64,000 nt of DNA. Source: an uncultured Phycisphaeraceae bacterium (lineage in GTDB: Bacteria > Planctomycetota > Phycisphaerae > Phycisphaerales > UBA1924). The DNA lies in NCBI GenBank assembly GCA_964496975.1, contig CAZCBN010000001.1:57678-121677 (forward strand), in the 5' to 3' direction. A program made the translations under genes and the position numbers. The notes beneath the pieces were generated by a model. It was given only the letters and a program-made list of their open reading frames with translations, made no database searches and was not told the DNA's origin. This document shows positions 24,418 to 60,385 of this stretch, piece by piece (within the stretch, counting starts at the first letter, position 1; the number at the start of each line of letters is the position of its first letter).

Positions 24418-24426
24418 GCGTCGTCC

Positions 24427-36388: not shown

Positions 36389-36392
36389 GGCG

Positions 36393-36725
36393 TCAGGCCA
36401 GCGTCAATACACGCCCGATGGCGTGCTGCATCCGATCCCATTCGCGGGTTTCAATCGCCAGTTGCTTGCGCCCTGACGCCGTGAGGCGGTAATACTTCGC
36501 CCGCCGCCCCAACTCCGAGACTTTCCATTCGGCCTCCACCCAGCCCTGATGCTCCAGGCGATGCAGGGCGGGATAGAGCGACCCCTGGTTGATCTGGAGC
36601 ACGTCTTCGGACACCTGCTGGATGCGCGCCGAGATGGCCCAGCCGTGCAGCGGGTCGTTCTGCAGGGCGCGCAGGATGAGCAGATGCAGGGTGCCGGGCA
36701 GCAGGTCTGGGACGCGTGGGGCCAT
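36393..36725 (-). CDS. PadR-family transcriptional regulator, second copy
   Basis: GTLHLLILRALQNDPLHGWAISARIQQVSEDVLQINQGSLYPALHRLEHQGWV. Ends 4 nt before the permease start. Confidence 0.85.
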   Translation of the reverse strand: MAPRVPDLLPGTLHLLILRALQNDPLHGWAISARIQQVSEDVLQINQGSLYPALHRLEHQGWVEAEWKVSELGRRAKYYRLTASGRKQLAIETREWDRMQHAIGRVLTLA

Positions 36726-37798: not shown

Positions 37799-38236
37799 AT
37801 GGCAATGGACCGACGACTGGCGTGGATGGCAACCGTGGGCGTGGCGGTGGTGGTGAGTGCAGGCGTGATCAGAGCGGCCGAGAAGCCGTCGCCTGAACAT
37901 GTCGCGGCGATGAAGGTGTTTAATTCCTCGAACGGCAAGCTGCGCCCGCTGCTCGCGGCCGAGACGAAGGATTTTGCCGCCATCGGGACCGTGGCCGCCG
38001 AGTGGAAGGCGTCGGCCGAGTGGATTGCCAAGTTCTGGGGCGCGCGCAACGCCGAGGTCGGGACGAAAGTCTCGGCGGAGGTGAACAAGGCCCTCACCGA
38101 TCTGGCCGCTGCGGCCAAGGCGAACGATGCCGCCGCAGTGACGGCCGCCGGCGCCGTATTGTCGGGCAGCTGCCGCACCTGCCATACGGCACACCGCACC
38201 GACCGGCTGCCTGACGGCACCTACGAAATCAAGTAA
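37799..38236 (+). CDS. Cytochrome c' (class II c-type cytochrome)-like protein
   Basis: Signal or anchor MAMDRRLAWMATVGVAVVVSAGVIRA. Helical ~120-aa body with a single C-terminal haem motif CRTCH. Confidence 0.65.
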   Translation: MAMDRRLAWMATVGVAVVVSAGVIRAAEKPSPEHVAAMKVFNSSNGKLRPLLAAETKDFAAIGTVAAEWKASAEWIAKFWGARNAEVGTKVSAEVNKALTDLAAAAKANDAAAVTAAGAVLSGSCRTCHTAHRTDRLPDGTYEIK

Positions 38237-38298
38237 CGCGCGTCGTCGCGCGCTCGCCTGGTGCGCGATGCCGTCCCGGTCTACACTGCTCAGTCGAA

Positions 38299-38868
38299 AT
38301 GCAGGCGCCTGCGGTCGTCAAACCCCACACGCTCCGAGACCTCTGCCCGGTTGACGTCAGCCAGCTCACCCGGCAGGTGGCGCAGCTGTCGGATGCCGTC
38401 TGGACGGCGCTCGATGCGGCCAAAGAAAACAAGTTCGCGGTGCTGGGCCACACCCGGCACATCATCTTCCGGTTCTTCCACCCCGCCGAGGATCCCCGGC
38501 GCTTTGTGTCCCACTCCATCTGGCACGCCTGGCGGGAGTCGCTGATGGCCGTGATGGCGCCGGTCGGGGCCACCTACGGTTACGCCCAGCCGGAATTTCC
38601 CAAGGTCATGCTCGCCAGCCTGCCCCCTGGGGGCGTGATTCACCCGCACACCGATGGTGCGGGCGGCAACCTGCTCACGCACAAGATTCACGTGCCACTC
38701 ACCACCAATCCCGGCGTCACGTTCACGATTCGTGACGAAGTGTTCCACCTGGACGTCGGTCGGGCGTACGAGGTGAACAACATCGCGAGACATGGCGGCG
38801 CCAACCACGGCACCGAGGCGCGGGTGCACCTGATCTTCGAGGTGTTCGATCGCGCAGGTCTGGACTGA
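38299..38868 (+). CDS. Aspartyl/asparaginyl beta-hydroxylase-family (2OG-Fe(II) cupin) protein
   Basis: VIHPHTDGAGGNLLTHKIHVPLTTNPGVTF..YEVNNIARHGGANHG..RVHLIFEV (HxD...H facial-triad arrangement). Confidence 0.7.
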   Translation: MQAPAVVKPHTLRDLCPVDVSQLTRQVAQLSDAVWTALDAAKENKFAVLGHTRHIIFRFFHPAEDPRRFVSHSIWHAWRESLMAVMAPVGATYGYAQPEFPKVMLASLPPGGVIHPHTDGAGGNLLTHKIHVPLTTNPGVTFTIRDEVFHLDVGRAYEVNNIARHGGANHGTEARVHLIFEVFDRAGLD

Positions 38869-43989: not shown

Positions 43990-44796
43990 GTGTCGTCGAC
44001 GCCGACCGATCCGCCCGATCTCTCCGGCAGCATCGTCGTCCTGGCTCACGCGCGAACCGGATCGTCACTGGTGATGCAGACGCTGCGCCTGCTCGGGGCG
44101 CAGGTGCTGGGCGACTTCGCGCGGCCCGACCTGCCGCAGTCGGCGAATCCGAAGGGCTACTTCGAGGATTTGGATCTGCTGCGCGACGGCCTGTCGGCGC
44201 GGGCCCTGGCCGACGCCCCGCGCCTGCTGCGCGGGCGCGCCGTGAAACTGGCGCTGCACCCGCTGGTCCACCGTCGATCGCGCGGCGAGTGGACGGCGTT
44301 GGCGCAGCCCGAGGTCCGGCTCCTGCTGCCGATCCGGACGCCGGCCGAATCGCTGACCTCGCGCCAGGTCTTCCTGCGATCGGATGACCCGCGCGCGCGG
44401 CACGACCTGTTCCACATGTCCGCGCGCAACCGGCTGCTGGATTTCGGGTTTCTCGCCGAGTGGGTTGGCGCGGCGGGGCGCCATCGCCCGGCCCCGGCCG
44501 TCATCGACTACGAACTCGCCATCGCCGATCCCGCGCGGTATGTGGCGCAGGTGGCGGACGCCGCGGCCCTGCAGCCGACCGGCGCGCAGCGGTCCGCGGC
44601 GCTCGACAACATCGATCGGGATCTCTACCGGTTCCGCCTGGCCGGCGACACCGCCACTCGCGCGGCGGCCGGCGTTCGGCCCCTCGAGCGCGTGTATGAC
44701 CTGCTGCGCGCCAATGATCCCGACCGGTGGGCGCGGCTTCGTGACTCGTTGCCGCCCTGGGTGTCCGAGGCGGCACGCGCGCCGCTGACCGACTGA
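43990..44796 (+). CDS. Sulfotransferase-like P-loop protein
   Basis: GTG start. IVVLAHARTGSSLVMQTL resembles the 5'-phosphosulfate-binding loop of Stf0-type sulfotransferases. Confidence 0.5.
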   Translation: MSSTPTDPPDLSGSIVVLAHARTGSSLVMQTLRLLGAQVLGDFARPDLPQSANPKGYFEDLDLLRDGLSARALADAPRLLRGRAVKLALHPLVHRRSRGEWTALAQPEVRLLLPIRTPAESLTSRQVFLRSDDPRARHDLFHMSARNRLLDFGFLAEWVGAAGRHRPAPAVIDYELAIADPARYVAQVADAAALQPTGAQRSAALDNIDRDLYRFRLAGDTATRAAAGVRPLERVYDLLRANDPDRWARLRDSLPPWVSEAARAPLTD

Positions 44797-45663
44797 CTAC
44801 GGCGCCGACGCCCAGTCCGCCCGCGCGGCCTGCCACTGCAGGAACGGCCCGCGGCGGTCTTCCTCCATGGCGTGCAGCGCGGCGGCCGTCACGTTCCACG
44901 GCTTGGGTGGCCCGAGAAAGTGCACGAGTGCGGCGTCGGCCACCGGGACCCGCGGCCGGGTATACCGCGCCATGTGGCCCGCGATGAAATAGTTGTAGTG
45001 TTCGCGAGCCCTCGTCCAGCGCCCCCGGAAGTACCGGTTGAGGATCACGCTGTCGGTGTGCCCTGTCCGCACCCCGGCCCAGGTCTCCGGACGCACCAGG
45101 TCCACCAGATCGCGGAAGGTCGATTCCCCGAGCCGGCCCGGCGCGATCGAGAGCACCCCCGCGTTGAACATCAGGTCGCCGGCACGCGCCTCGAGCGCCT
45201 CCGGTCCGACCTCGGCCGCGACGTACGTCACCGGGTCGCGAATCTGTCCGCGGTAATAACTCTGATCGGGACACGCGAGCAGCGGGGCGTCGGTGGCCGC
45301 CAGCGCGGCGACGGTGCCGGTACAGAGCACGTCGCTGTCGATTTTCAGCACCCGCGCGTACTCGGTAAGGCTGAAGGCGTCGAGCGCAAACAGGATGCGG
45401 GCTTTACGCGCGACCGCGGGCACCTGGTCGGCCGTGGCCGTCACGCGCGCCTTCAGCCGCGCGTCCACCGCGCGGAAGGTCACGTTCGGAAACCGGCGGA
45501 GCGCCTCCACCGCCGCAGGCGGCAGCCCATCGTGGATGATGACAATGCGGCCGGTGAACCACGGGTTGTGGCGCAGGAACGACCACAGCAGCACCAGCGT
45601 CCCCGGCAGGTACGCCTCATCGGTCACCGTGGCCAGGCAGGTTGAATCGGGCGCGGTAATCAA
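44797..45663 (-). CDS. GT8-family glycosyltransferase
   Basis: CLATVTDEAYLPGTLVLLWSFLRHNP.., DxD-type KIDSDVLCTG, and C-terminal HFLGPPKPW. There is no in-frame ATG near the domain start, so TTG 45663 was chosen. The 536-aa track ORF is 5'-extended. Confidence 0.7.
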   Translation of the reverse strand: MITAPDSTCLATVTDEAYLPGTLVLLWSFLRHNPWFTGRIVIIHDGLPPAAVEALRRFPNVTFRAVDARLKARVTATADQVPAVARKARILFALDAFSLTEYARVLKIDSDVLCTGTVAALAATDAPLLACPDQSYYRGQIRDPVTYVAAEVGPEALEARAGDLMFNAGVLSIAPGRLGESTFRDLVDLVRPETWAGVRTGHTDSVILNRYFRGRWTRAREHYNYFIAGHMARYTRPRVPVADAALVHFLGPPKPWNVTAAALHAMEEDRRGPFLQWQAARADWASAP

Positions 45664-45681: not shown

Positions 45682-46251
45682 ATGCGCAGAGTCTTCGGCA
45701 TCGGATTCCACAAGACGGGGACGTCGAGCCTCGCGGCCGCGCTGGCGCTGCTCGGCTACCGGGTGTGCCAGGGCGCACGGCCGATTCGCCAGGCGCTCGG
45801 CGTCACCGAAGCCCTCGACCTGCTGCGCCGCCACGAGCTGGACCCGATCCTGCGGGTGGCCGAGCGCTTCGACGCCTGCACCGACAATCCCTGGTTTCTC
45901 CTGTACCGCGAGCTCGACGAGCGCTTTCCGGGGAGCCAGTTTATCCTGACTCATCGGCCGCCGGCCGCGTGGCTCGCGAGCGCGCTGCGGTACTACGGCC
46001 GCAGTGAGACCCCGATGCGGCACTGGATCTACGGGGTCGGCACGCCCACCGGTCACGAGGCCGTTTGGCTTGCGCGGTACGAGCGGCACCTGGCCGACGT
46101 GCGCCGGCACTTCGCCGGCCGGCCGGATGACCTGCTCGAGGCGGACTGGACGCAGGGCGACGGCTGGTCCACGTTGGGCCGCTTTCTCGGGCGGAAGACA
46201 CCATCCCAGCCGTTTCCCCACGTCCGACCGGTTCGCTCCCCGCGCCCCTAG
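45682..46251 (+). CDS. Sulfotransferase-family protein
   Basis: MRRVFGIGFHKTGTSSLAAAL (PAPS 5'-PSB loop-like) and ..FILTHRPPAAWLAS. Same orientation as the PqqD gene and 46 nt upstream of it. Confidence 0.65.
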   Translation: MRRVFGIGFHKTGTSSLAAALALLGYRVCQGARPIRQALGVTEALDLLRRHELDPILRVAERFDACTDNPWFLLYRELDERFPGSQFILTHRPPAAWLASALRYYGRSETPMRHWIYGVGTPTGHEAVWLARYERHLADVRRHFAGRPDDLLEADWTQGDGWSTLGRFLGRKTPSQPFPHVRPVRSPRP

Positions 46252-46297: not shown

Positions 46298-46588
46298 ATG
46301 TCACGCGAACACACCGTGCATCTGGAGTCCGTCATTTCGCGGTCGGAGGAGATCATCTTCACCGACCTGAACGATGACGTGACGATGATGGACGCCAGAA
46401 CGGGCAAGTACTATGCCCTGCCGAAAGTCGGCGGGCGGATCTGGACGCTCCTCGCCCAGCCCATGTCGGTCGCCGCCCTCTGCGATCGTCTCCTCTCCGA
46501 ATACCGCGTCGACCGCAAGCGGTGCGAGGAGGAAGTCTGCGCCCTGTTGGCAGACATGCACACTGCGGGCATCGTCAATCGATCCTGA
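46298..46588 (+). CDS. PqqD-family protein (RiPP recognition element)
   Basis: 96 aa: SEEIIFTDLNDDVTMMDARTGKYYALPKVGGRIWTLLAQPMSVAALCDRLLSEYRVDRKRCEEEVCALLADMHTAGIV, the canonical PqqD pattern. GGGAGCGAGAGG lies upstream of ATG 46298. Confidence 0.8.
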   Translation: MSREHTVHLESVISRSEEIIFTDLNDDVTMMDARTGKYYALPKVGGRIWTLLAQPMSVAALCDRLLSEYRVDRKRCEEEVCALLADMHTAGIVNRS

Positions 46589-46612
46589 ACCGAGTCAGAA
46601 AGGACACCACAC

Positions 46613-46771
46613 GTGGACACCAACGAGCCCCCCGAACGTTTCGCCGAGCCGACGCCTGCGTTGAAGGAGTGGGAAACGCCGACGCTGATCACGGAAGACA
46701 TCGTCGAAGTGACCAAGGGAGGTTCGTTGACCCTGGCCAGCCCGGGGGATGACACCTGGTATCGGTCCTAG
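46613..46771 (+). CDS. Candidate RiPP precursor peptide (52 codons, not in the ORF track)
   Basis: GTG 46613 to TAG 46769-46771, with AAAGGA about 9 nt upstream, 24 nt after the PqqD stop. Peptide: VDTNEPPERFAEPTPALKEWETPTLITEDIVEVTKGGSLTLASPGDDTWYRS. It has a W-x-x-P-x-L leader motif, a T-K-G junction and a C-terminal Ser. Confidence 0.5.
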   Translation: MDTNEPPERFAEPTPALKEWETPTLITEDIVEVTKGGSLTLASPGDDTWYRS

Positions 46772-46786
46772 TCGGCGGCCGCGCCC

Positions 46787-47722
46787 TCAGGCGCCGGCGG
46801 CCGGCGCCACCGCCAGCTCGGCGCGCACCAGCTGCACAAGCTGCGGCAAGTCCGCCAGACGCGTCGTCCGCCTCAACGCCACCACGGGGACACGCGTCCC
46901 GACCGCGACGCACAACCCGAAGTGCGTACGCGATTGGCCAAGCGCCAGAGAGATCGGCCGCCGGTAGGTGCCGGCGGCGACTGCGGGCACCCGCGCCGCG
47001 CCGGTGATGCGCCGCAGTGCCGGAACCTCGCCCGGCGGTCCTTCGAAGACAAAAATCCGATCGATCGGCACCGGTGCGGGCGACGCGGGCTCGAACTCGA
47101 CGTGGTGCTTGCCGCGGACGGCGGCACTGCCGCGTCCCGCGGCCACCCAGGCCAGTGAGTCGGCCTGCAGCCGGAACTGACGCGCGCCGGGGTGGACCTG
47201 CGGGCGGCCGGCCGCGTCGAGCGACACGACCGCGAGATCCTCGGCGATGACGCGATGCGCCCCCGCATGAAACGCGGCGGCCAGCGTCGACTTGCCGGCG
47301 CCCGGCCGACCGGCGAACAACACACAGTGGCCATCCACCTCCACGGCGCTGGCGTGCATCGGCAGCGCCCCTCGCTGGTGGACCAGCGCCGCCATGACTG
47401 AGGACAGCAGGAACAGGCGGACATCCTCGAGCGAGGCGCCCGGCAGCGGCGCGACGACTACCTCGCGTCCCTCCCGAACCCAGTACCTCGCAATCCGCGG
47501 CAGGTCCAGCAGATACTCACCGGCGGCCGCGGCGTATCGCCGGCGCCGGGTCGGCTGCCCCGCGAGATCGAGCGGGGTGTCGCCGTACCGGATGACGACA
47601 TCCGGCTCCGCCTCCGTCGGCATCAGGGCGGGCAGTTCGAGGTCCGACGCGATCGTGACCCCGTGCGCGCGGTAACGGTAGCCGACGACTGGTGCGCCGG
47701 TCGGCTTATCATCGGTCACCAC
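46787..47722 (-). CDS. HprK C-terminal-domain-like serine kinase (HprK-related kinase)
   Basis: PMHASAVEVDGHCVLFAGRPGAGKSTLAAAFHAGAHRVIAEDL is the P-loop context of HPr kinase-like proteins. The N-terminus YRYRAHGVTIASDLELPAL..PDVVIRYG matches the family. A GTG start at 47722 (or 47719) was chosen; the 415-aa track ORF is 5'-extended. Confidence 0.75.
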   Translation of the reverse strand: MVTDDKPTGAPVVGYRYRAHGVTIASDLELPALMPTEAEPDVVIRYGDTPLDLAGQPTRRRRYAAAAGEYLLDLPRIARYWVREGREVVVAPLPGASLEDVRLFLLSSVMAALVHQRGALPMHASAVEVDGHCVLFAGRPGAGKSTLAAAFHAGAHRVIAEDLAVVSLDAAGRPQVHPGARQFRLQADSLAWVAAGRGSAAVRGKHHVEFEPASPAPVPIDRIFVFEGPPGEVPALRRITGAARVPAVAAGTYRRPISLALGQSRTHFGLCVAVGTRVPVVALRRTTRLADLPQLVQLVRAELAVAPAAGA

Positions 47723-47724
47723 GC

Positions 47725-49506
47725 ATGCTGCTCCTGGACGCTGAGCTTGACACACTTCTCGCGGCCATCGCCACCGGCGACGCGCGCGTGGTATCGCCGC
47801 TGTTTGCCGCCTACCTCGCGGCCGAGCCGCGCGCCGGACGAAAGCGGCATCTGGCCGGCCTGCAGTTGCTGGCGCGCGGCCACCGCGGCGAGGCCAGCGC
47901 GAGACTGGAGGCGGCGGCACTCGAGGCGCCGGACGCCGGCGCAATCCGCAACAACCACGGCCATGTGCTGATGCTCCGGGAACAATGGGACGCGGCGGCG
48001 GCGCAGCTGCGCGCCGCGCATGCGCTGCTCCCATCGGCCATCGAACCGCTGGTCAATCTGGCGGACATCCTGGCGCTCTGTGACCTGCCGTCGGAAGCGC
48101 GCCGCGTCCTCGACCGCGCGCTGGCGATCGCGCCCGATCATCCCGACACCGCCCTCCGTCTGCTCCGGCTCAGCCTCCGCCTCTCCGATCAGGCCGGCGC
48201 GGCGCACGCCGCGTCCATCCTGGCGCGCGCGCCGGCGCCGTCGGCCGCCGCCTCGTACGGCCTCGGCCGGTACTGCGAACACATCGGCGATCTGGACGCC
48301 GCCGCGCGCCACTTCTCAGCCGCGGCGGCGATGGGCAGCGGCGCAGCGCACAGCCGCCTGGCCCGGCAGGCGCTCGATCGTCACGACCTGGATGCGCTCA
48401 CCCGCCATGCGGCGCTGGCGACGACGCTGGCACCCGATGACAGTGACGCCTGGCGCGTGCGCGCGCTTTCGCATCAGCTGGACGGCGACCTCGCCGGGGC
48501 GCGGCGCGCGGCCCACCTGGCGTTTGCCTGCAGCCGCCAGACCGCCCGTGACGTCGCCAACTACATCGAGACCCTGGCGTTCGACCTCGGGACCGAGGTG
48601 TCGCTGGCCGGGTACGAGTCGCGCTGGAGCACGCGGACTCCGCAGCCGGAGGCGGCCCGGTCGCGGTTCTCCGGCCGGCGATGGCTGGGCCAGCCTGCCG
48701 GCAGCGACCACGACCTCCTGATCCACACGGAACAGGGACTCGGCGACGCGCTGCAGTACATCCGTTGCGTCAGCGCCGTGCAGGCGCTCGGATGGCGCGT
48801 ACACCTGGCCACTCATCCCGCCCTTCTCCGGTTGCTGGCACGCGTGCCTGGCGTCGCCTCCGTCACCACCCTCGAGGAGGCCGCGGCGCTGCCGTGGCAC
48901 TGCCCGACGGCGAGCCTGCCCTTTGCGGTTGAGCCGCAGCTGGGTGATCCGGCCGCCAGTGTCCCGTACGTGTCGGCCGACCCCGCCGACATCGAGACCT
49001 GGCGGCGCCGGCTCGCGGGCGGCCCGGGGCCCACGGTCGGACTCGTCACCAGCTGCAATCCCCGGCACCCGCGACACGCCCAGCGATCGATCCCGTGGGC
49101 CCTGATCGCGCCGCTCGCGCGGGTCGCAGGCGTGACGTTCGTCCTGATTCAGCCCGACGAGGCGGGCGGCCCCCCGCGGTTTCGCCGCGCGCCCTCGACG
49201 TGGCCGGGCCCGGCGCGACTCCTCGATGTCAGCGATCATGGCGGCGACCTGCTCGAGACCGCCGCCGCAATCGCCGCGCTCGACCTGCTGGTCACCGTCG
49301 ATACCGCCCTGCTCCACCTCGGCGGGGCGCTGGGCCAGCCGGTCTGGGCGTTGCTGTCCGCGTATCCGCAGGCGCGGTGGCTGCCGCGTCCCGGCCGGAC
49401 GTGGTACCCCACGGTGCGACTCTTTCAGCAATCAGTGCCGGGCGACTGGACCGCAGTCATTGAGTCGGTGCGGGCCGAGCTGAGTGCGGCTTACGCCCGC
49501 AAGTGA
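47725..49506 (+). CDS. TPR-repeat protein fused to a GT9 (heptosyltransferase-like) glycosyltransferase domain
   Basis: About 300 aa of TPR-like helices (..ARRVLDRALAIAPDHPDTALRLL..). GT9 part: LLIHTEQGLGDALQYIRCV..VGLVTSCNPRHPRHAQRSIPW..LLVTVDTALLHLGGALGQPVWALL. The ATG 47725 start is uncertain. Confidence 0.75.
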   Translation: MLLLDAELDTLLAAIATGDARVVSPLFAAYLAAEPRAGRKRHLAGLQLLARGHRGEASARLEAAALEAPDAGAIRNNHGHVLMLREQWDAAAAQLRAAHALLPSAIEPLVNLADILALCDLPSEARRVLDRALAIAPDHPDTALRLLRLSLRLSDQAGAAHAASILARAPAPSAAASYGLGRYCEHIGDLDAAARHFSAAAAMGSGAAHSRLARQALDRHDLDALTRHAALATTLAPDDSDAWRVRALSHQLDGDLAGARRAAHLAFACSRQTARDVANYIETLAFDLGTEVSLAGYESRWSTRTPQPEAARSRFSGRRWLGQPAGSDHDLLIHTEQGLGDALQYIRCVSAVQALGWRVHLATHPALLRLLARVPGVASVTTLEEAAALPWHCPTASLPFAVEPQLGDPAASVPYVSADPADIETWRRRLAGGPGPTVGLVTSCNPRHPRHAQRSIPWALIAPLARVAGVTFVLIQPDEAGGPPRFRRAPSTWPGPARLLDVSDHGGDLLETAAAIAALDLLVTVDTALLHLGGALGQPVWALLSAYPQARWLPRPGRTWYPTVRLFQQSVPGDWTAVIESVRAELSAAYARK

Positions 49507-50153
49507 GTCGGGCCGCGACCCGGCTCGTGCCCGGCATACCCAAACGCCTCGATATCTTCGCGATAAGTCACGGCCACCTTCGCTGCCAGGTCGTCGGTGT
49601 AATAACTCGCCGCCGCCTCGTGGGTGGAGGCGTTCAGCTGCGGCAGCGGGCCTGACGGCAGGCCAAGGCGACGGCAGACATGGTCGAAGTCGTCCTGCAG
49701 ACGCTCGAAGCGGCCGATGAAGTCCAGGGACAGGCGGCCGACGGCATCAATCAGAAATGACTGTTGCGCCGCGAACCACGTGTCTGCCCGCGTCCGTTCG
49801 CTCTCGAGCAACAGCGGCAGGTACCGCTGGGGATACGCCTGGAACAGCGGCCGGTGGGCGTTCCGGAAGAACGCGCACGAAATGAACCGATCCCACGGGT
49901 TCCGGACGAATGCAAATTTGAAATAGCCGGACCACGCCTCGGCAGGCAGCCACGGCTGGGCCTCAACCGCGCGAATGTGCCCGTGTCCGATTCGCGCCAG
50001 CGCGTCGATGGGCAGGCGCCGCGACGCTTGCCAGTCGGACTGTTCCCAATCGCGCACCGGATCCAGATGGGGCCGCAGCGCGGCCCGGATGGACTGAGTG
50101 CCGGTCTTCGGGACCGCGAGAAAGATGAACCTCCTGGAGTGGCAGACGATCAT
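49491..50153 (-). CDS. Sulfotransferase family 2-like protein
   Basis: MIVCHSRRFIFLAVPKTGTQSIRAAL (PKxGT-type PAPS loop) and ..FAFVRNPWDRFISCAF. Confidence 0.7.
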   Translation of the reverse strand: MIVCHSRRFIFLAVPKTGTQSIRAALRPHLDPVRDWEQSDWQASRRLPIDALARIGHGHIRAVEAQPWLPAEAWSGYFKFAFVRNPWDRFISCAFFRNAHRPLFQAYPQRYLPLLLESERTRADTWFAAQQSFLIDAVGRLSLDFIGRFERLQDDFDHVCRRLGLPSGPLPQLNASTHEAAASYYTDDLAAKVAVTYREDIEAFGYAGHEPGRGPTHLRA

Positions 50154-50251: not shown

Positions 50252-50899
50252 ATGGAAGCATTTATCGGAACGATTCAGGCCTTCGGATTCAACTTTCCAC
50301 CGCGCGGCTGGGCGCCGTGTGACGGACGCCAGCTCTCGATCGCGCAGTGGAGCGCCGTCTTCTCGCTGCTGGGCACCCAGTTTGGCGGCAACGGGCAGAC
50401 CACGTTCGCGCTGCCTGACCTGCGCGGGCGCCACATGGTCAACCAGGGACAGGGCCCTGGCCTGCAGATGTACACGATCGGGCAGACTGGCGGCGCGGAA
50501 AGCACCACGCTGACCCAGGGCCAGATGCCGATGCACACGCACATCGCGGTGGCGCAGCCGCACACCCACTCGACCCAGGCGCACACCCACACCAACACCG
50601 CGACGTCGGCGCTGTTTGCCGAGCGTCTCGCCGGGAATCTGGCCAACCCGAACGGCAACATGATGGCGTCGGCGGCCAACATGTACCTCGCGCCGGCGGC
50701 CCAGAACAACGTGCAGCTCGCGGCCGACTCGATCACCACCGCGGTCACGATTGATCAGGCGGCGGTCACACTCGACCCCGCCACCGTCACCGTCACCAAC
50801 AGCGCGGCCGGCGGCTCCCAGCCGTTCGACAACCGTCCGCCGTACCTCTGCGTGAACATCTGCATCTGCCTCGAAGGCATCTTCCCGTCGCGGAACTGA
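50252..50899 (+). CDS. Phage tail collar domain (MdpB-like) protein
   Basis: MEAFIGTIQAFGFNFPPRGWAPCDGRQLSIAQWSAVFSLLGTQFGGNGQTTFALPDLRGR, an HTH-rich middle (MPMHTHIAVAQPHTHSTQAHTHT), and the C-terminus GGSQPFDNRPPYLCVNICICLEGIFPSRN. Confidence 0.8.
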   Translation: MEAFIGTIQAFGFNFPPRGWAPCDGRQLSIAQWSAVFSLLGTQFGGNGQTTFALPDLRGRHMVNQGQGPGLQMYTIGQTGGAESTTLTQGQMPMHTHIAVAQPHTHSTQAHTHTNTATSALFAERLAGNLANPNGNMMASAANMYLAPAAQNNVQLAADSITTAVTIDQAAVTLDPATVTVTNSAAGGSQPFDNRPPYLCVNICICLEGIFPSRN

Positions 50900-50906
50900 C
50901 GCGCCG

Positions 50907-52040
50907 ATGTCCCTGGGCCGTTCCGGCCCGCTCCGCGTGGGCGTGTTGCCGCCAGGTTCGAGTTTCGTGCCGCTGCTGGCAGAGGATCTGCTTGCGGCCT
51001 TGGAACTCGGCCTGGCGGACGCGGGCGTGCCGGCTGAACTCGTGGCCGAGTTCGCCGACCACAATGCCGACCCGAAGGTGGTCGCGCCGAAAGCGCAACA
51101 ACTGCTCGTCGGTCAACGATGCGCGTGCGTGGTCGCGCCCCTGAACGTCTCGTTGATGGAGCGGCTGGCGCCGAACTTCCAGTTCCGGAACAGCCCGCTG
51201 CTGGCCCTGACCCTCGGCGAAGACCCACTGTTCGACACCGCGCGCAATCCCTGCCTGTTCGTGCACAGTCACCAGCTGTGGCGCGCAGCCTGGATGTGCG
51301 GGTACCTCGGCGTCCGTCGCTTCGGCCCCCGCGCGGCGATGCTGCTGGGCCTGCACGACGGCGGCTACGGGCTGGCGTTTGCGTTCCAGCTGGGCCTGGA
51401 GGCCGCGGGCGGAGAGGTGGCCCACGTGGCCGTGACGCACCGGCACTCGCGCCGTGACGATCCGAGCGACGACATCGCGGCGGCGTTGCGCGCGACCCCC
51501 GACTTCGTGTGGGCGGCCTACTCCGGTCTCGAAGCCATCTCGTTCCTGCAGGCCTACGCGCGACGGCCCGGCCTGGCCGCGCTGCCCATCATCGGGCTGT
51601 CACCGCTGGTCGAGGATCACGTCCGTGCCGGAGTGGGCGCCGCCGCGGCCGGCCTGCACATCGTCACCCCCGGTCCGTCGTCGGCCGACCAGCATGCCCT
51701 CACGCTCGCGCTGACGAAGGCGCTGACGCGCCGGCCGCATCCGTATGTGGTGCTGGCGTACGAATCCGCGCGACTCCTCGGTCTGGCGGCCGGACGTGTG
51801 GCCGGCGGCCAGGCCGATCTGCCGGCCGCGCTCCGCGACGTTGCGTTTGACAGCGCCCGCGGCGCGGTGCGGTTTGACGATGGCGTCGAACGTCCAATCC
51901 CGTTCTGCCTGCGACGGATGACCGCTGACGGCGAAACCGTCGACGATGTCGACGGGGTGCCCGCCCTCGACGAGCAATGCGGCGCGGCCCGCCGCAATCT
52001 CGTCAAGCAGGGTTGGGTCAATCCCTACCTCTGCGCGTGA
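50907..52040 (+). CDS. Type I periplasmic-binding-protein-fold (LivK/AmiC-like) protein without signal peptide
   Basis: 377 aa. LRVGVLPPGSSFVP.. and an alternating alpha/beta pattern. No hydrophobic N-terminus. Fold assignment is tentative. Confidence 0.45.
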   Translation: MSLGRSGPLRVGVLPPGSSFVPLLAEDLLAALELGLADAGVPAELVAEFADHNADPKVVAPKAQQLLVGQRCACVVAPLNVSLMERLAPNFQFRNSPLLALTLGEDPLFDTARNPCLFVHSHQLWRAAWMCGYLGVRRFGPRAAMLLGLHDGGYGLAFAFQLGLEAAGGEVAHVAVTHRHSRRDDPSDDIAAALRATPDFVWAAYSGLEAISFLQAYARRPGLAALPIIGLSPLVEDHVRAGVGAAAAGLHIVTPGPSSADQHALTLALTKALTRRPHPYVVLAYESARLLGLAAGRVAGGQADLPAALRDVAFDSARGAVRFDDGVERPIPFCLRRMTADGETVDDVDGVPALDEQCGAARRNLVKQGWVNPYLCA

Positions 52041-53050
52041 TGACCGTCCACGCGTCACCGCCTCGCACGGTCCTGTTTGCCGACGGCCTGGTGGCGCAGC
52101 CGACGATGGAGGCCCTGCTCGGCGCCGGGTGGGTGGCCGGACTGGTCACGCCGCGTGCGTCAGTCGAGGCCTCGCCACTGCGCCTGCTGGCGCGTCACCA
52201 GTCGGTCCCCGTGCTCGACGTCACCCGCGCGGATCTTGCGGCCGGCATCGACACCTGGCTGCAGACCTGCCGGCCGGATCTGGTGTTGTCGATCGCGTTT
52301 CCCTATCGCATCCCCGCGTCGCTGATCGCGATGCCGCCCCTGGGCGCGTTCAACGTACACGGCGGACGTTTGCCCAGGTATCGCGGGCCGCAGCCGGTGT
52401 TCTGGCAACTCGTCAATCAGGAGTCCGAGGGCGCCGTCGCCGTACACCTCATGGACGAGGCGTTCGATCGCGGCCCGGTGGCGGTGTCGCACCCGATCCC
52501 GATTGATCCGGACGACACCCATGGCCTCCACACCGTCCGCGTGGCCTTCGCCGCGGTGGCCGCGGTCCGGGCCCTGTGCGCGGCCCTCCTCCAGTTCGGC
52601 CGCCGCCTCCCCCTCGAGCCGCAGGAGGAAGCCGCCGCCGGCTTTCAGCGGCGGCCGGCCTACGACGACCTGGTCATTCGATGGGACCAGCACACGGGGC
52701 GTGACATTCGCGCACGCGTCAAGGCGGGAAACCCGTGGAACCACGGCGCGTTCACCTCGCTCAAGGGCGTGGACCTTCGACTGACCGACGTGACGCTGAT
52801 CGAAGGCGCCGGCCGGCCGTCGGCCGCCCCCGGTGAGGTGCTGGCCGTTCACGCCGCTGACGGCGTGTTGATCAACTGCCGGGACGGGTCGGCGCTGCGC
52901 GCCGACGTGATCTCCCTGCGCGAAGGACTGCTGCCGGGACGCGCGCTGGCGGCCTTCGGGGTGACGGCGGGTGATTGCTTCACGCCTCCGGTGTCGACCG
53001 GACCGGACGCCGGCGCTCGAGGTCCTGCCACACCGCCTCGAGCGTCGTAA
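52040..53050 (+). CDS. Fmt/ArnA-like formyltransferase (N- and C-terminal domains)
   Basis: The start overlaps the upstream stop (TGATG). PDLVLSIAFPYRIPASL..GAFNVHGGRLPRYRGPQPVFWQL..HLMDEAFDRGPV (N..H..D catalytic pattern), plus a Formyl_trans_C-like end. Confidence 0.8.
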   Translation: MTVHASPPRTVLFADGLVAQPTMEALLGAGWVAGLVTPRASVEASPLRLLARHQSVPVLDVTRADLAAGIDTWLQTCRPDLVLSIAFPYRIPASLIAMPPLGAFNVHGGRLPRYRGPQPVFWQLVNQESEGAVAVHLMDEAFDRGPVAVSHPIPIDPDDTHGLHTVRVAFAAVAAVRALCAALLQFGRRLPLEPQEEAAAGFQRRPAYDDLVIRWDQHTGRDIRARVKAGNPWNHGAFTSLKGVDLRLTDVTLIEGAGRPSAAPGEVLAVHAADGVLINCRDGSALRADVISLREGLLPGRALAAFGVTAGDCFTPPVSTGPDAGARGPATPPRAS

Positions 53051-53903
53051 GGTCCACGCCAGGAATGCCGGCAGCGGGGTCGCCCTGAAACGGTTCAAAC
53101 GGCCGCTTGGCGTGTGTGGCGCAGCGCAGGGCGATCTGCGCCCGTGAGGGCGCGTCATCCGGCAGGCCCATCCAGCGGGCGGCGCGCAGAAACGCCGCCG
53201 GGAACCCTTCGTCGTAGCTCACCAGCAGGCTGCGGGCATCGGACGCCGACAGCGACGACAACGCGCGATAGTGATGCTCGAGCACCGCCGCCGCGTACTG
53301 GTCCAGACTCACCCGTTCCGGATCGTACGCCACGGTGAACGGCGCCGGGTCGAGCAGACCGGGCACCATGTGCATCCCGCGCATCCTCCGCTGTGACGCC
53401 AGCACGGCGGCCGGGGCGCGATACAGCAGGATGAATGGGACACCGGGGAACCACTGGCGGAGTTCCGAGGCATGAAATACGTGCCAGCAGTCCGCCTTCA
53501 CGAAGAGCCGGCCGCCGGGGGCCAGTTGTCCCAGCAGCGACAGCGCCCTGGTGAAGTACTCCTCGCGATTCACGCGACTCGACCGGAGCAGCTGATCGAG
53601 CACGGGGGCCTCGGACACGACCACGTTGCGCGCGTCGAGCGCGAGGAGTTGCGCGAACAGGGTCGACCCGCATCGGGACACGTGAAAGATGAACGCGCCC
53701 GGAGCGGCGGCGCGCGGGACCGGCGCCTCGAGAATCGCCTCGACCGGCGTGAACCGGCGCCCGCCGCCTTCACGGATCACACGCGCGACGGACGCTTCGA
53801 ACAACGGCTCGATGAAGCGGACCCCGGCCACGTCAATCCACTCGCAGCGCTCGACGCCATCCACGGTGACGAGACGTGCCGGCACCCAGCAGGGCTCGCT
53901 CAC
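52980..53903 (-). CDS. Sulfotransferase-like protein
   Basis: The GTG start overlaps the stop of the upstream hydroxylase gene (GTGA, 53900-53903). AFIFHVSRCGSTLFAQLL (PAPS loop-like). The 495-aa track ORF is 5'-extended. Confidence 0.55.
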   Translation of the reverse strand: MSEPCWVPARLVTVDGVERCEWIDVAGVRFIEPLFEASVARVIREGGGRRFTPVEAILEAPVPRAAAPGAFIFHVSRCGSTLFAQLLALDARNVVVSEAPVLDQLLRSSRVNREEYFTRALSLLGQLAPGGRLFVKADCWHVFHASELRQWFPGVPFILLYRAPAAVLASQRRMRGMHMVPGLLDPAPFTVAYDPERVSLDQYAAAVLEHHYRALSSLSASDARSLLVSYDEGFPAAFLRAARWMGLPDDAPSRAQIALRCATHAKRPFEPFQGDPAAGIPGVDLTTLEAVWQDLERRRPVRSTPEA

Positions 53904-54583
53904 CCGTCGGCCTCGAGCGCGTCGGCCAGCCGCCGGTCCGTCTCGGTGCCCCGGCTGCGCAGTTCCTCGACCACGCGGCGACGCACCTCCGGCCTCATCC
54001 GGCGCGCGTCGGCATCGGCGGCGAAGTCGTACCCCGCGGCCGCAAACACGGCGTCCGACCACTCGTTCCGGCGGCCATCGATGATCAGGTGCACGCGGTC
54101 GCTGGCGCCCTCGTTGCTGACGCTGTGCGGCCGCGTGAAATCCGCATACCAGCATTCGCCGGGCTGCATCACGAGCCGATGGCCGGCGACGACGAACCGG
54201 GTCTCGGCATTGGTGGTGATGGGCACGTGCAGGCGGAAGAACCCTTCCGCGTAGGACGCGCCGCGATCGGTGTGTTCGGCGATCACGCTGCCCGGCGTGA
54301 GCCGCAGCAGCCGGACGGTCTCCAGCGGGCACGCAAAGGTGTCGAGCACCTCGCGGAAGTAGGCGCACGCCTGCAGCAGGGACGCCTCGCGATACCCCTC
54401 GAGCCCCGGAATCGACAGCAGGTCGTCCTCGGCCCCGGAGGCCGAACGCAGCGCCACGCCGCCCCATTCGCCGGCGTAATCACGGCGATTGGCGTGTGGC
54501 TGCCAGGCCTGGCGGCAGTGCTCCAGGTCGCCGGCCAGCCGGACCGGGTCGAACCTGAACGGCAGTTGCAGAACGACGGTCAA
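53900..54583 (-). CDS. Aspartyl/asparaginyl beta-hydroxylase-family protein (second copy)
   Basis: [55 protein letters not shown] 54583 was chosen as the start ([16 protein letters not shown]..). The ORF region upstream of it is not protein-like. Confidence 0.65.
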
Positions 54584-54919
54584 TGTAGGTGCGCCTTGTA
54601 GTGCTCTCTCAGCAGGTCGCGTCCGAAGTCGCCGTCGAAGTCCCGCCACACGGAGTGGATGTGGTTGCTGCCCCGGACGCCTCCGTCGGCGTCTGGGCAG
54701 CGCGCGTCCCGGCGACGGCGCGTCGTTCCAGCCTGCTTCCTCGCCGCGGCCTGGAAGATGACGCGGCAAGTATACACGCGTCGCGCACAGTGCGCCGCGG
54801 CCGCCGGCGCGCGGTGAGCCCGTGTATCGCCGGGTGGTTACACACCGTCTCGACCTGGTCCTCGGTGGGACACTCGCGATCGCAACTCTGCCGCTGGCGG
54901 CAGCGGTGACCTGGCGGTC

Positions 54920-56413: not shown

Positions 56414-57630
56414 GCGAGGAGGCTCCGACCGGCGGCCGACGCGAGGAACGCAGCGGAATCCAGGCCTGCTGGGCGGCCCCGGCTCGGATCACGCAAGAAG
56501 GTGTAGACCTGCCACACTTCGCGAGCTGTCCGCTGGACGTCGAACATCACCCGCGCCAGCGCCCGTCCGCGCGCGGCGAGGGCACGCGCCGACGGCAGGT
56601 CGTCGAGGACCTCGTTGATCGCGTCAGCCACCTGCGCGGGGGCGTGGCTGTCGACCGTGCGACCCGTCACACCATCGATGACCAGCTCGCCCAAGGCGCC
56701 GACACGTCCGGCGATGGTCGGCACCCCTGCCAGCAGGGGCTCGAGCACCCCCCCCATGTTCTCACTGAGCGGCACGTGCACGGCGCAGTCGAAGTCGGCC
56801 CACGCCGCCACGACGTCTTCGTGCGGCAGGTACCCCGGCATGAGGATGCGGCCGTGCCCAACGCGAGCGGCCATCCGCCTGAGCTTTCGTTCGTAGGCGT
56901 CGGCGCCATTCCAAGGCCCGCCGGCCAGCACTCCAACGACGTCCTGACGTCGGGCGAGGACCATCGCCAGGGCTTCAATCACCCCTTCGTGGTTCTTGAT
57001 GCCGCGGGTCTGACCAAGCAGCCTCTTCGGCGCATACAAGTAGTTGATGTTGCCAACGATTCGCAGCCCGTCGCCCACCCCAAGCCGTCGGCGCAGCACG
57101 CCGGGGCCCTCCGCGCCTGCTACCGGCAGGTCCATGCCGGGATAACTCAGGAACACCCGACCGATTGGTGCCCCGGCCTGCACGAGACGATCCCACACGC
57201 AGCGGCTGGCGGCGATCCACGCATCACCCGGGCCGGCTGACGCGAGTTCAAGCCGACGATAGAAGGCGTATTCGAGATGCAACGGCCCCAGCACCTGGAA
57301 GACACGCGGCACCGGGTGGGCCCGTCCAAGCGCATGACGCAACACCAGGGTGGTGCCCAGCGCATACGAGTGGATGATGTCGGGGCGCACTCGCTCGACG
57401 AGACGGCGTGCCGCGTCCAGGGCGGCGGGCACCTGCCACGGTGCGGCGGTCGGCAGGTCGAGTGACGCCTCGTGCAACGTCGCGCCGGAGGCCCGCCACC
57501 GTCCAAGCGCCTGACCAGATTCCGGCGGAAGCGCGACGTGCACATCAGCGCCCAGGTGGACGAGCGCCCGCGCCTGGGCGGCCGCCCACAAGCCCCCTTC
57601 GGTGGTCTTGACCACCAGCAGGACCCTCAT
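56410..57630 (-). CDS. GT4-type (GT-B fold) glycosyltransferase
   Basis: MRVLLVVKTTEGGLWAA.. and C-terminal VHVPLSENMGGVLEPLLAGVPTIAGRVGALGELVIDGVTG (EX7E-like). The start overlaps the stop of the upstream gene (ATGA, 57627-57630). Confidence 0.8.
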   Translation of the reverse strand: MRVLLVVKTTEGGLWAAAQARALVHLGADVHVALPPESGQALGRWRASGATLHEASLDLPTAAPWQVPAALDAARRLVERVRPDIIHSYALGTTLVLRHALGRAHPVPRVFQVLGPLHLEYAFYRRLELASAGPGDAWIAASRCVWDRLVQAGAPIGRVFLSYPGMDLPVAGAEGPGVLRRRLGVGDGLRIVGNINYLYAPKRLLGQTRGIKNHEGVIEALAMVLARRQDVVGVLAGGPWNGADAYERKLRRMAARVGHGRILMPGYLPHEDVVAAWADFDCAVHVPLSENMGGVLEPLLAGVPTIAGRVGALGELVIDGVTGRTVDSHAPAQVADAINEVLDDLPSARALAARGRALARVMFDVQRTAREVWQVYTFLRDPSRGRPAGLDSAAFLASAAGRSLLA

Positions 57631-59075
57631 GCGCCAGTTCCTGCACGTGCCGGCTGAAGGCGAGTGCTGATGAGGGTGACCGCAAGCCACGGCACCGCAC
57701 CCGCCTTCACGAAGAGAAAGACCAGATTGTCCGAGTCCAACGGAAGCGCCAACAGGCAGATCGTCACCAGATGCGGCACCAGCAGCCGCCGGGCATCGCC
57801 TGTCTCCGTCCATCGCAGTTGGCAACGCCGCACTGTCCCCACAAGGATGCCGAACGCGCCGTACATCACCGGCACAAACAGCGGGCCGAAATTCAAGATC
57901 GCCTCTCCACTGAGACCATACACGCGGCTCGTCCGGCGACCGCGCGCGAAGGCCCCGACGTGGTCCTCGAGGTCGGTGGTCCAGCGAATCTTCCCCGGAG
58001 GCCGCGACGGCCAAATCCGCGCTGGCACGAGCAGCGCCAACGACCCGAGATAGGTCTGGCCCCACGCCGGTGTCCAGTGACGTCGCTCATCCATGACCCG
58101 CCACAGGGCCAACGCCTGAACGTCACTGCGGGACAAGTCACTCAAGAGCAGGACCGACCAGTCGCGCTGTACACCAATGGCCGCCGTCGTCTCGCCGGCG
58201 ATCAGGCGGGTGGTCCGCAACCCGGCGTCCTTGTACCAGCCCCAGACAAACGCCAGAATCAACACCAGCGGAATGCCGGCCAGGAGCAGCCGCTTCGTAA
58301 AGGGCCGGATCGTGGTGTGTGCAATGCCGGCGGCCCAAAAGAGCCCCCAGATGATCGTCGCCCGGCTGCCCCGCAATCCGCCAAACAGCACGAACACCGG
58401 AATCATTGCGGTCAGCAACACGCCAACCACTGCCAGCCGGCGCGTCCACGCCCACCGGCTCGCCGCCAGTCCAATCCCGAACATGAGCAGGATCGGGAAG
58501 CTCTCCGAAATCATCAGGATCCAGCCGGTGCCTTTGAAGGCGTCGTACAGAAGGGTGTTGCGCTCGAATGCCTCGACGTACCCGCGGACACCGCCGAAGC
58601 GAGCGAAGACCCACACCTGGGTCAGCGCCGTCACCACGAGCAGGACCGGCAGGACCCATCGCGCCCGGGCGCTCTCCAGATACCATCGCGCCGCAGCGGG
58701 GCGTGCGGGACGGGCCAGCGTCCACTGCCGAACCATCCGATAGACGCCGAGCGACACGACATGCAGCATCGCCATACCGCCGATCCAGGGGCGATAGTCG
58801 GACGGCTGCTGGTCGATGAATCGCAGTGCGTGACCAGACGCCACCGTGAGCAGGGGGGCCACCTGGAAGAAGTAGATGCCCACCACCCCCACCAATCCCA
58901 CCGGGTCGAACGGCTCGGTGGCGCCCGCCCACCAGTCGAGCGCATCCAACAGACACAACACTCCACACACCGTGACCGGCACAACCAGCCAATGCCAGCC
59001 CGCGCTCCCCAGCCAAAGGATCGCGGCGGAGATCACGGAGGCGATCGCTACGGCCATCGGGAGACGCTCAGGCAT
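57627..59075 (-). CDS. Polytopic membrane protein, candidate Wzy-type repeat-unit polymerase
   Basis: 482 aa with more than 10 hydrophobic segments, located between Wzx-like and GT genes. No diagnostic motif was recognised. Confidence 0.5.
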   Translation of the reverse strand: MPERLPMAVAIASVISAAILWLGSAGWHWLVVPVTVCGVLCLLDALDWWAGATEPFDPVGLVGVVGIYFFQVAPLLTVASGHALRFIDQQPSDYRPWIGGMAMLHVVSLGVYRMVRQWTLARPARPAAARWYLESARARWVLPVLLVVTALTQVWVFARFGGVRGYVEAFERNTLLYDAFKGTGWILMISESFPILLMFGIGLAASRWAWTRRLAVVGVLLTAMIPVFVLFGGLRGSRATIIWGLFWAAGIAHTTIRPFTKRLLLAGIPLVLILAFVWGWYKDAGLRTTRLIAGETTAAIGVQRDWSVLLLSDLSRSDVQALALWRVMDERRHWTPAWGQTYLGSLALLVPARIWPSRPPGKIRWTTDLEDHVGAFARGRRTSRVYGLSGEAILNFGPLFVPVMYGAFGILVGTVRRCQLRWTETGDARRLLVPHLVTICLLALPLDSDNLVFLFVKAGAVPWLAVTLISTRLQPARAGTGA

Positions 59076-60372: not shown

Positions 60373-60385
60373 CCCGGCAGCAGGT

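Follow-up and report, generated by a model that had tools for sequence, protein, structure and literature searches.

The window analysed here, a stretch of 64,000 nt from an uncultured Phycisphaeraceae bacterium, carries a compact module formed by a PqqD-family gene, a 52-codon peptide gene and a convergent P-loop kinase gene. This module fits best as the leader-dependent front end of a lasso-derived, kinase-associated family of peptides that are made on ribosomes and modified after translation (RiPPs), a family whose other members keep a cyclase. In lasso peptide terms, the three genes correspond to the RiPP recognition element (RRE; B1), the precursor (A) and the kinase (K), and the genes that would complete the set, a transglutaminase-type leader protease (B2) and an Asn-synthase-type cyclase (C), were not detected in the window. 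Its most likely mode of action is that of the first steps in the making of phosphorylated lasso peptides. The explanation favoured here, to which a probability of about 0.5 was assigned, is that a lasso-like cluster with multiple tailoring steps has been split, so that the window contains one half of it and the cyclase comes from elsewhere in the genome. An earlier note, made from the letters of the sequence, had recognized the same three genes as a lasso-type precursor, a B1-type RRE and an HprK-like peptide kinase; these identities were correct, and all the coordinates and sequence features given for the genes were verified.

The precursor peptide gene

The precursor gene (46613..46771, + strand) runs from a GTG at 46613 to a TAG ending at 46771 and encodes MDTNEPPERFAEPTPALKEWETPTLITEDIVEVTKGGSLTLASPGDDTWYRS. 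It lies 24 nt downstream of the PqqD gene, and an AAGGA Shine-Dalgarno-like motif is placed 8 nt before the GTG. The product comprises a 35-aa leader (46613-46717) and a 17-aa core (46718-46768; GGSLTLASPGDDTWYRS), followed by the stop codon (46769-46771). The leader presents the motif W-E-T-P-T-L located 14 residues before a Thr at position –2, and spacings of 13-15 residues between motifs of this type and Thr(–2) were seen in 26 related precursors.

The exact 52-aa product had already been annotated as a gene in a public protein collection. Among the loci collected around relatives of the kinase (numbered L002, L009 and so on), the syntenic loci L002, L009, L010, L012, L011 and L155 carried a 50-60-codon open reading frame (ORF) after PqqD that could be aligned with the window peptide, and L013 carried a frameshifted copy in the same place. 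A word-indexed homologue search with the 52-aa peptide recovered only the peptide itself; when 1.84 billion representative proteins were searched exhaustively with HMMER, nine further short relatives emerged, which had in common the core GG-x6-PGDD-x-WY-x-S. The ratio of nonsynonymous to synonymous substitution rates (dN/dS) in the closest pairs was 0.21 (L002-L010) and 0.20 (L011-L155), while for the window and L009 the proportions of nonsynonymous and synonymous differences were 0.31 and 0.75, with dS saturated and hence no dN/dS value. Because the public gene call, the PqqD-adjacent syntenic homologues, the short relatives and the signature of purifying selection all agree, the small ORF is a genuine precursor gene under purifying selection. 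The conservation and codon-level selection that the earlier note had proposed to look for in this ORF were thus both found, with a dN/dS of ~0.2 in the closest pairs.

Across the family, the N-terminus of the peptide was variable, the GG junction was invariant and the leader preserved the consensus [K/x]-x-W-x-T-P-x-L-I-x-E-D-(I/V)-x-x-x-T-x, a pattern of conservation that is that of a RiPP precursor. The subfamily core reads G-G-x6-P-G-D-D-x-W-Y-x-S, and the window core agrees with it at every position. Moreover, the C-terminal Ser was invariant in 15/15 precursors of the clade closest to the window (the near clade).

Three RCC1-repeat proteins (P0245, P0247 and P0252; E ~1e-6) were discarded as relatives of the peptide, their resemblance to the leader being due to chance through the repeat motif TPxxIMEDVxxVSAG; this kind of similarity could contaminate profile searches for the precursor family. 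It was also observed that the PqqD gene and the peptide ORF (46298-46771) are in one reading frame, separated by a TGA and eight codons. Since the spacing differs in L002, where the gap is 14 nt, the common frame is probably a coincidence and not a read-through fusion.

The recognition element and the kinase

The PqqD-family gene (46298..46588, + strand), extending from the ATG at 46298 to a TGA ending at 46588, codes for a 96-aa protein that matched PF05402 with E=4.7e-16 and scored 78.9 bits on the NCBIfam model lasso_PqqD_Bac (NF033536), whose cutoff is 80. Its best relatives of solved structure were lasso B1 proteins, namely 9x90_B (3e-13), TbiB1 (5v1u; 2e-9) and TfuB1 (6jx3), and it was 40-50% identical to the PqqD proteins of the syntenic loci. 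The protein corresponds, therefore, to the B1/PqqD-type RRE of lasso clusters.

The kinase gene (46787..47722, – strand) is convergent to the peptide ORF, with its stop 15 nt past the TAG at 46771, and encodes a 311-aa P-loop protein of the HprK/PEPCK superfamily that carries HASAVEVDGHCVLFAGRPGAGKSTLAAAF. The earlier note had named PF05402 and PF07475 (Hpr_kinase_C) as the profiles to which PqqD and the kinase should answer; the first assignment stood, but the kinase reached 22.4 bits on PF07475, below the gathering score of 33.3, together with a weak PEPCK match. The kinase is not an HPr kinase/phosphorylase proper, since its score on TIGR00679 was also low (22.8 vs 240 bits). The models for HprK-related kinases and their PqqD partners, which the same note had suggested, did not apply either: in the HPr-rel-A system, the scores were 45.7 vs 200 bits for the kinase (TIGR04352) and 30.4 vs 35 for PqqD (TIGR04353), and the SynChlorMet equivalogs ScmC and ScmD gave 36.5 vs 125 and 17 vs 100 bits, respectively. 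No radical-SAM gene, the SynChlorMet partner, was detected in the window. The 327 kinase relatives detected, the majority of them in kinase-B1-B2-C clusters, were tagged in the protein database as PF27840, the Pfam 'ScmC' family, to which the window kinase was assigned as a lasso-type K. It was 30-36% identical to the kinases of canonical clusters (L005, cyanobacterial and Sphingomonas loci), and its best match among GTDB species representatives had 50% identity. Thus, the protein is homologous to kinases found inside B1-B2-C clusters, and its putative substrate has a C-terminal Ser.

The AlphaFold2 model of the kinase was confident (pLDDT, the predicted local distance difference test, of 90.6) and presented the PEPCK/HprK-superfamily fold. 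The P-loop (G138-x2-G141-x-G143-K144-S145), His123 and Lys205 were intact, and the Asp pair reads E161-D162, a position occupied by D-D in 118/120 relatives.

Close relatives of the locus keep a cyclase

About 150 loci around kinase relatives were annotated with local hidden Markov models (HMMs), and counts were taken from the 53 loci that extended 6 kb or more to either side. An Asn-synthase-type C was found within 10 kb in 43/53 loci, the full B1+B2+C set in 29 and B1+C without B2 in 10. A canonical example is L005, which contains the kinase, a sulfotransferase, PqqD, Transglut_core3, Asn_synthase and an ABC exporter. Ten loci had no C, and B1 without C was observed in only three, including the window. 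A scan of metagenomes yielded almost no near-clade loci long enough to be used.

The eight closest kinase relatives examined (L002, L009, L010, L011, L012, L013, L154 and L155; 41-54% identity) all carried a lasso-cyclase-like Asn synthase at most 3 kb from the kinase or the peptide gene. The best NCBIfam model for these near-clade enzymes was NF033535, the lasso peptide isopeptide bond-forming cyclase, with 378-417 bits against a cutoff of 525; the canonical cyclase of L005 scored 305 bits on the same model. The possibility that they were true AsnB enzymes, raised by their GATase-domain matches, was rejected because the L005 cyclase has the same matches and NF033535 was the best model for all of them. 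A Transglut_core3 B2 was found nearby in two of the eight (L013 and L155), and in this respect the near-clade loci, mostly devoid of a nearby B2, agree with the B-less C+A+K clusters already described (PMC6993621). The closest relative, L009, is arranged as kinase > cyclase > < peptide < PqqD, and the window preserves this order with 15 nt alone in the cyclase slot. One of the close relatives (L013) came from an Acidobacteriota metagenome-assembled genome (MAG), and the kinase-associated lasso-derived family occurs mainly in Acidobacteriota-like genomes.

Other arrangements were recorded in the survey. L002 has a second Asn-synthase-family gene (1-1794, –) at a distance of ~9 kb from the cyclase. 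It probably encodes an AsnB-like amidotransferase and not a second cyclase, since it branches outside the cyclase clade and is 22% identical to the cyclase P0151 described below. In a Bryobacterales MAG (L059, 8659-12153), two Asn_synthase fragments, apparently what is left of a decayed cyclase, come before a precursor-like ORF, the kinase and an NTP_transf_5 gene; this indicates that cyclase loss does occur in this kinase family. The loci L051, L058 and L003 (kinase at ~10000) present a kinase and NTP_transf_5 pair without C or B2 within 10 kb, to which L051 adds a precursor-like ORF and L058 a PqqD gene; such loci may constitute a separate, cyclase-free module for phospho-glycosyl peptides.

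The missing cyclase and a candidate partner

The earlier note had found no cyclase or protease gene between 38 and 64 kb, and this held not only for that interval but for the whole 64-kb window. Pfam scans of its large ORFs revealed neither Asn_synthase nor Transglut_core3, seven lasso-cyclase homologues and a single B2, used as tblastn queries, had no match in the window (all E>0.01), and local HMMs based on 62 cyclases and on 40 B2 proteins returned no match in unfiltered profile searches. Neither B2 (PF13471) nor C (PF00733/NF033535) is therefore encoded in the window. As eight of the eight close relatives keep the cyclase and the window core fits the subfamily consensus perfectly, macrolactam formation and leader removal are most likely supplied from elsewhere in the genome.

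A candidate for the missing enzyme emerged from a search with the L009 cyclase, which returned ~35 near-clade cyclases. One of them, P0151 (48% identity), came from NCBI and Logan, as did the window genes, and was found in the runs ERR3494947 and ERR3494954, and the window kinase was found in ERR3494959, which belongs to the same series. The P0151 contig has 5.6 kb and 71% GC, and its tetranucleotide correlation with the window was 0.988, within the range of the window's own chunks (0.974-0.991), whereas all other loci were at or below 0.976. P0151 branches inside the near-clade cyclases, and its identity ranking (L009 > L154 > L002 > L010 > L012 >> L011/L155) parallels that of the window kinase. 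Moreover, its locus has C without K, and the window has K without C. These sequence-derived features are suggestive of P0151 as the partner cyclase, encoded elsewhere, of a split cluster. The earlier note had reasoned that a B2/C pair lying outside the window would make this an ordinary split lasso cluster, which, given a P0151 on another contig of the same run series, is plausible as regards C. In its own locus (L156, 1377-5578), P0151 overlaps an upstream FkbM-type methyltransferase gene by 4 nt and converges on a radical-SAM/SPASM gene.

A sequence of events can be proposed from better known systems. The HprK-like kinases of the paeninodin, pseudomycoidin and Sphingobium pathways phosphorylate the C-terminal Ser of the linear, leader-bearing precursor and fail on the threaded lasso (PMC8498205), and in Bradymonas the kinase is made much faster by B1 and does not accept the core without its leader (PMC10368454). 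By analogy with the paeninodin and Sphingobium kinases and with BsfK/BsfB1, the window B1 would bind the leader and present the linear precursor to the kinase, which, ahead of any ring closure, would phosphorylate a residue with a hydroxyl group, the invariant C-terminal Ser being the most likely one. Conserved residues and synteny suggest that the Asp/Asn hydroxylases encoded nearby may act on the conserved [D/E]-[D/N] pair and that at least one of four sulfotransferase-like enzymes may have the invariant Tyr, or a different hydroxyl, as its target. The macrolactam would then be formed, and the leader removed, by enzymes from elsewhere in the genome, with P0151 as the candidate cyclase.

Acidic residues of the core

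To our knowledge, every known lasso ring needs an Asp or Glu at core position 7-9, giving rings of 7-9 residues. With the core start set by the Thr(–2) rule in all precursors, the acidic residues of the window core are those at positions 11 and 12 alone, and 13/15 near-clade cores likewise had no Asp/Glu at 7-9. In control cores from other loci, an Asp or Glu was present at position 8 or 9 in 11/11. The acidic residue conserved in the near clade is placed at 11/12 (PGDD type, the window included), at 12 (GGEN type) or at 10. A double-glycine style of cleavage, behind the GG pair, would place an Asp at position 9 in the PGDD subfamily, but this idea was dropped because it leaves Pro, Met or Asn at the N-terminus and does not work for L002, L010 and L007. 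The positions of these residues may mean that the near-clade cyclases form 10-12-membered rings, that the N-terminus arises elsewhere or that the enzyme acts differently. Since the B2, the C and the ring-position Asp/Glu of lasso clusters are all missing, the window was not filed as a lasso cluster.

The invariant Gly1, together with the Asp/Glu conserved at core positions 10-12 (PGDD, at fixed spacing), led to a tentative reading, considered possible rather than probable, in which the near clade would form a new structural RiPP class. Its products would be 11- or 12-residue macrolactams or linear peptides, multiply decorated with a C-terminal phospho-Ser, sulfated Tyr and beta-hydroxy-Asp/Asn, and in the window the A-B1-K-sulfotransferase module would work free of a cyclase. 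If that were true, an 11- or 12-residue macrolactam would exceed any known lasso ring.

Weighing the explanations

Several observations weigh against a split cluster served by a distant cyclase. The 46 kb upstream of the module and the 17 kb downstream contain neither C nor B2, whereas 3 kb or less separate C from K or A in all close relatives, and a split arrangement would be unprecedented within the near clade. The source contig, of 145,870 bp, carries none of the ~35 near-clade cyclases, so that the part of it beyond the window is also without one, and P0151, a candidate member of this genome, was seen in other runs than the window kinase. Likewise, since the core has no Asp/Glu at 7-9, adding a cyclase would still not give a canonical lasso. 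The kinase, in turn, deviates from its family at 5/32 near-invariant columns, against a median of 1.5, and one of the deviations, D161E, falls in the catalytic Asp pair, where 2/120 sequences depart from Asp; taken together, these changes indicate that the kinase may be weakened.

An alternative is a pathway that stands alone, in which the cyclase was lost and A-B1-K, with the surrounding sulfotransferases, hydroxylases and glycosyltransferases, makes a linear phospho-, sulfo- or hydroxy-peptide whose leader is removed by a housekeeping protease or retained. Because lasso kinases need only the linear precursor and B1 (PMC8498205, PMC10368454), the retained genes would form a self-sufficient biochemical unit; neither the three module genes nor the ~10 syntenic tailoring genes are damaged, the 15 nt left in the cyclase slot form a clean closure free of pseudogene debris, and distant loci with kinase and peptide (with or without PqqD) that lack C and contain NTP_transf_5 are known from the survey (L051, L058 and L065). 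However, the window has no NTP_transf_5 partner, no close relative presents the cyclase-less arrangement, and the window core keeps all the residues of its cyclase-bearing relatives (the GG N-terminus, Thr(–2) and the spacing of the DD pair), which is hard to explain if it is never cleaved or cyclized. As a candidate trans-encoded cyclase also exists, a stand-alone pathway was judged unlikely. A linear phosphopeptide or otherwise undefined RiPP route had been put forward as a possibility in the earlier note; the lack of cyclase and protease in the window was confirmed, but the proposal does not hold as the leading reading, since 8/8 relatives keep the cyclase. If the cyclase was lost fairly recently, the module could instead be a decaying remnant, with PqqD, peptide and kinase ORFs still open but yielding no useful product. 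The deviation count of the kinase was the second-highest among 20 close relatives and included, besides the rare D161E, a G155A that was unique among 120 sequences; B1 and A without C are rare (3/53 loci); and the clade appears to be in flux, as exemplified by the GT9 remnant of L009, the Asn-synthase fragments of L059 and the frameshifted peptide and PqqD genes of L013. Nevertheless, no frameshift or premature stop was found in ~13 island genes, the peptide fits the subfamily consensus perfectly, all five kinase substitutions are conservative and leave the P-loop, His and Lys intact, the structural model is confident, and the divergence of the window from its relatives (41-68% identity) is no greater than that among the relatives themselves, all of which makes decay a doubtful explanation.

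That the small ORF is incidental, and that PqqD and the kinase work for the polysaccharide cluster around them (GT2, AT3-SGNH, FkbM, Wzy), is very improbable. The island is indeed embedded among glycan-type genes, and its sulfotransferases and glycosyltransferases could act on a glycan. Yet the GT2, FkbM, Wzy and GT2-MT genes that flank it were not shared by the syntenic loci, whereas the peptide, PqqD, kinase, sulfotransferase and hydroxylase genes were; furthermore, the small ORF is conserved under purifying selection and the PqqD is of the lasso B1 type. A split cluster, with its cyclase encoded elsewhere in the genome, was thus retained as the favoured explanation.

Putative tailoring genes and other neighbours

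The module is surrounded by a conserved island that includes four sulfotransferase-like genes within ~10 kb and two Asp/Asn hydroxylase genes, all with homologues in at least two syntenic near-clade loci. Directly upstream of PqqD, a Sulfotransfer_4 gene (45682..46251, +; PF17784, E=1.9e-33) is 55-59% identical to the genes in the same position in L002, L009, L010, L012, L013 and L154; it probably belongs to the PqqD/peptide operon, since the three genes are co-directional with gaps of 46 and 24 nt. Divergent from it by an 18-nt gap is a GT8 glycosyltransferase gene (44797..45663, –; PF01501, E=2e-17), 42-54% identical to syntenic GT8 genes. The next gene (43990..44796, +) had no Pfam or NCBIfam match and was recognized as sulfotransferase-like by synteny and by the motif ARTGSS of the 3′-phosphoadenosine-5′-phosphosulfate (PAPS) loop; its product is 55-68% identical to syntenic ORFs and aligns with residues 192-442 of an L002 protein in which its homologue is fused to Sulfotransfer_4. 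Farther upstream lies one of the Asp/Asn beta-hydroxylase-family genes (38215..38868, +; PF05118, E=8e-11), 38-41% identical to hydroxylases in L002, L009 and L012.

On the other side, beside the kinase, a TPR and GT9 glycosyltransferase gene (47725..49506, +; TPR, PF01075) occupies the place where the relatives have other genes, and a 51-codon remnant of a GT9 C-terminus adjoins the kinase in L009 (867-1022); a role of this protein in the peptide module is inferred. The starts of the kinase (GTG 47722, –) and of TPR-GT9 (ATG 47725, +) are back to back, so both promoters must fall inside the coding sequence of the neighbour. These genes are followed by a Sulfotransfer_2 gene (49491..50153, –; PF03567, E=3e-14), with homologues in L009 and L154, by a phage-tail-collar-domain gene (50252..50899, +; PF07484, E=1e-25), 42-45% identical to the Collar genes of L002, L011, L012 and L155, and by an adjoining periplasmic-binding-protein-like gene of the Peripla_BP_6 type (50910..52040, +, start approximate; PF13458), whose product is 29-32% identical to the L002 and L012 neighbours. 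The Collar and Peripla_BP_6 genes travel with the RiPP island in L002, L011, L012 and L155. A Sulfotransfer_3-like gene (52980..53912, –, start approximate), identified by the motif FHVSRCGSTL and by synteny, matches L002 3247-4191 with 52% identity across 299 aa. It is accompanied by the other Asp/Asn beta-hydroxylase-family gene, a 2-oxoglutarate oxygenase (53900..54598, –, start approximate; PF05118, E=1.4e-17), which is 60% identical to L002 2552-3250, there too directly upstream of the sulfotransferase. Homologues of other accessory genes of the relatives (NTP_transf_5, JmjC, MBOAT and radical-SAM) were not found in the window.

An ORF at 53397-54254 (+), with coding-like GC content at third codon positions and 43% 'identity' to L002, was discarded as the antisense shadow of the sulfotransferase gene at 52980-53912 (–); such shadow ORFs are a trap in high-GC genomes. 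Elsewhere in the window, two consecutive ORFs (57627-60417, –; 488 and 449 aa) of coding-like composition had no Pfam match at E<=1e-3, and the regions 7160-9034, 21688-24426 and 33722-36403 hold a BlaR1-M56/CarboxypepD_reg/TonB_C fusion and two duplicated MacB-FtsX permeases of ~900 aa, genes of a kind typical of Acidobacteriota and consistent with the origin of L013.

Implications

If the family behaves as its sequences suggest, an acceptor Asp/Glu outside positions 7-9 would bear on the ring sizes and threading accessible to lasso cyclases, and clusters that are routinely without an adjacent B2 protease would extend lasso-type chemistry. A further extension would lie in the unusual density of sulfotransferase and Asp/Asn hydroxylase genes that would be co-transcribed with the RRE and its precursor. 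The cyclase-less copy in the window is a natural experiment on whether an RRE-kinase front end can work alone, and the compact gene set (A, B1 and K, with or without P0151 and the sulfotransferases) is suited to heterologous reconstitution. If the cyclase is merely elsewhere in the genome, the locus would be a cautionary example for cluster-based genome mining and not a new pathway.

Comparison with known systems

The HPr-rel-A (TIGR04352/TIGR04353) and SynChlorMet (ScmC/ScmD) cassettes defined by Haft share with the window the pairing of an HprK-related P-loop kinase with a PqqD-family protein, but the window proteins fall below all four equivalog cutoffs and PqqD scores best on the lasso B1 model. 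In the literature searched, nothing relevant was found on ScmC, SynChlorMet or HPr-rel-A, nor any sulfated lasso peptide.

The likeness is closer to the phosphorylated lasso peptide clusters. With the paeninodin cluster (padeK-A-B1-B2-C-D) and that of Sphingobium yanoikuyae (Zhu et al. 2016, reviewed in PMC8498205), the window has in common a YxxPxL-type leader, Thr at –2, a C-terminal Ser and a discrete PqqD/B1 protein, and its HprK-like kinase is homologous to those of K-sulfotransferase-B1-B2-C-D clusters such as L005, which also contain a sulfotransferase gene. In contrast to these clusters, the window is without B2, C and D and its core has no Asp/Glu at 7-9 but a DD at 11-12; it adds four sulfotransferase-like genes, two Asp/Asn hydroxylases, GT8, TPR-GT9 and Collar/PBP6. 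Similarly, the BsfK/BsfB1 pair of Bradymonas sediminis (PMC10368454), in which the RRE has a dual role, has the kinase motif H...GxxGxGKS...DD in common with the window, where the pair reads ED owing to D161E. BsfK phosphorylates Ser3 of the core of a precursor that ends in Asp, and the bsf cluster contains B2, C, D and N.

The pseudomycoidin system and the B-less Stanieria cluster (PMC6993621) are also kinase-type lasso systems with a glycosyltransferase in the cluster, in which the B proteins are dispensable or absent and the C-terminal Ser is phosphorylated and then further decorated. Lasso peptides can form in the absence of B1/B2, and C+A+K clusters devoid of B proteins have been described (Zyubko et al. 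2019, PMC6993621); B-less clusters of the kinase type were thus already on record, which counts against the undefined route suggested in the earlier note as the leading reading. The pseudomycoidin and Stanieria systems keep the cyclase and lose B1/B2, whereas the window keeps B1 and is missing the cyclase. The near-clade relatives, with A, B1, K and C and mostly without a nearby B2, are thus a closer analogue of the B-less systems than the window itself.

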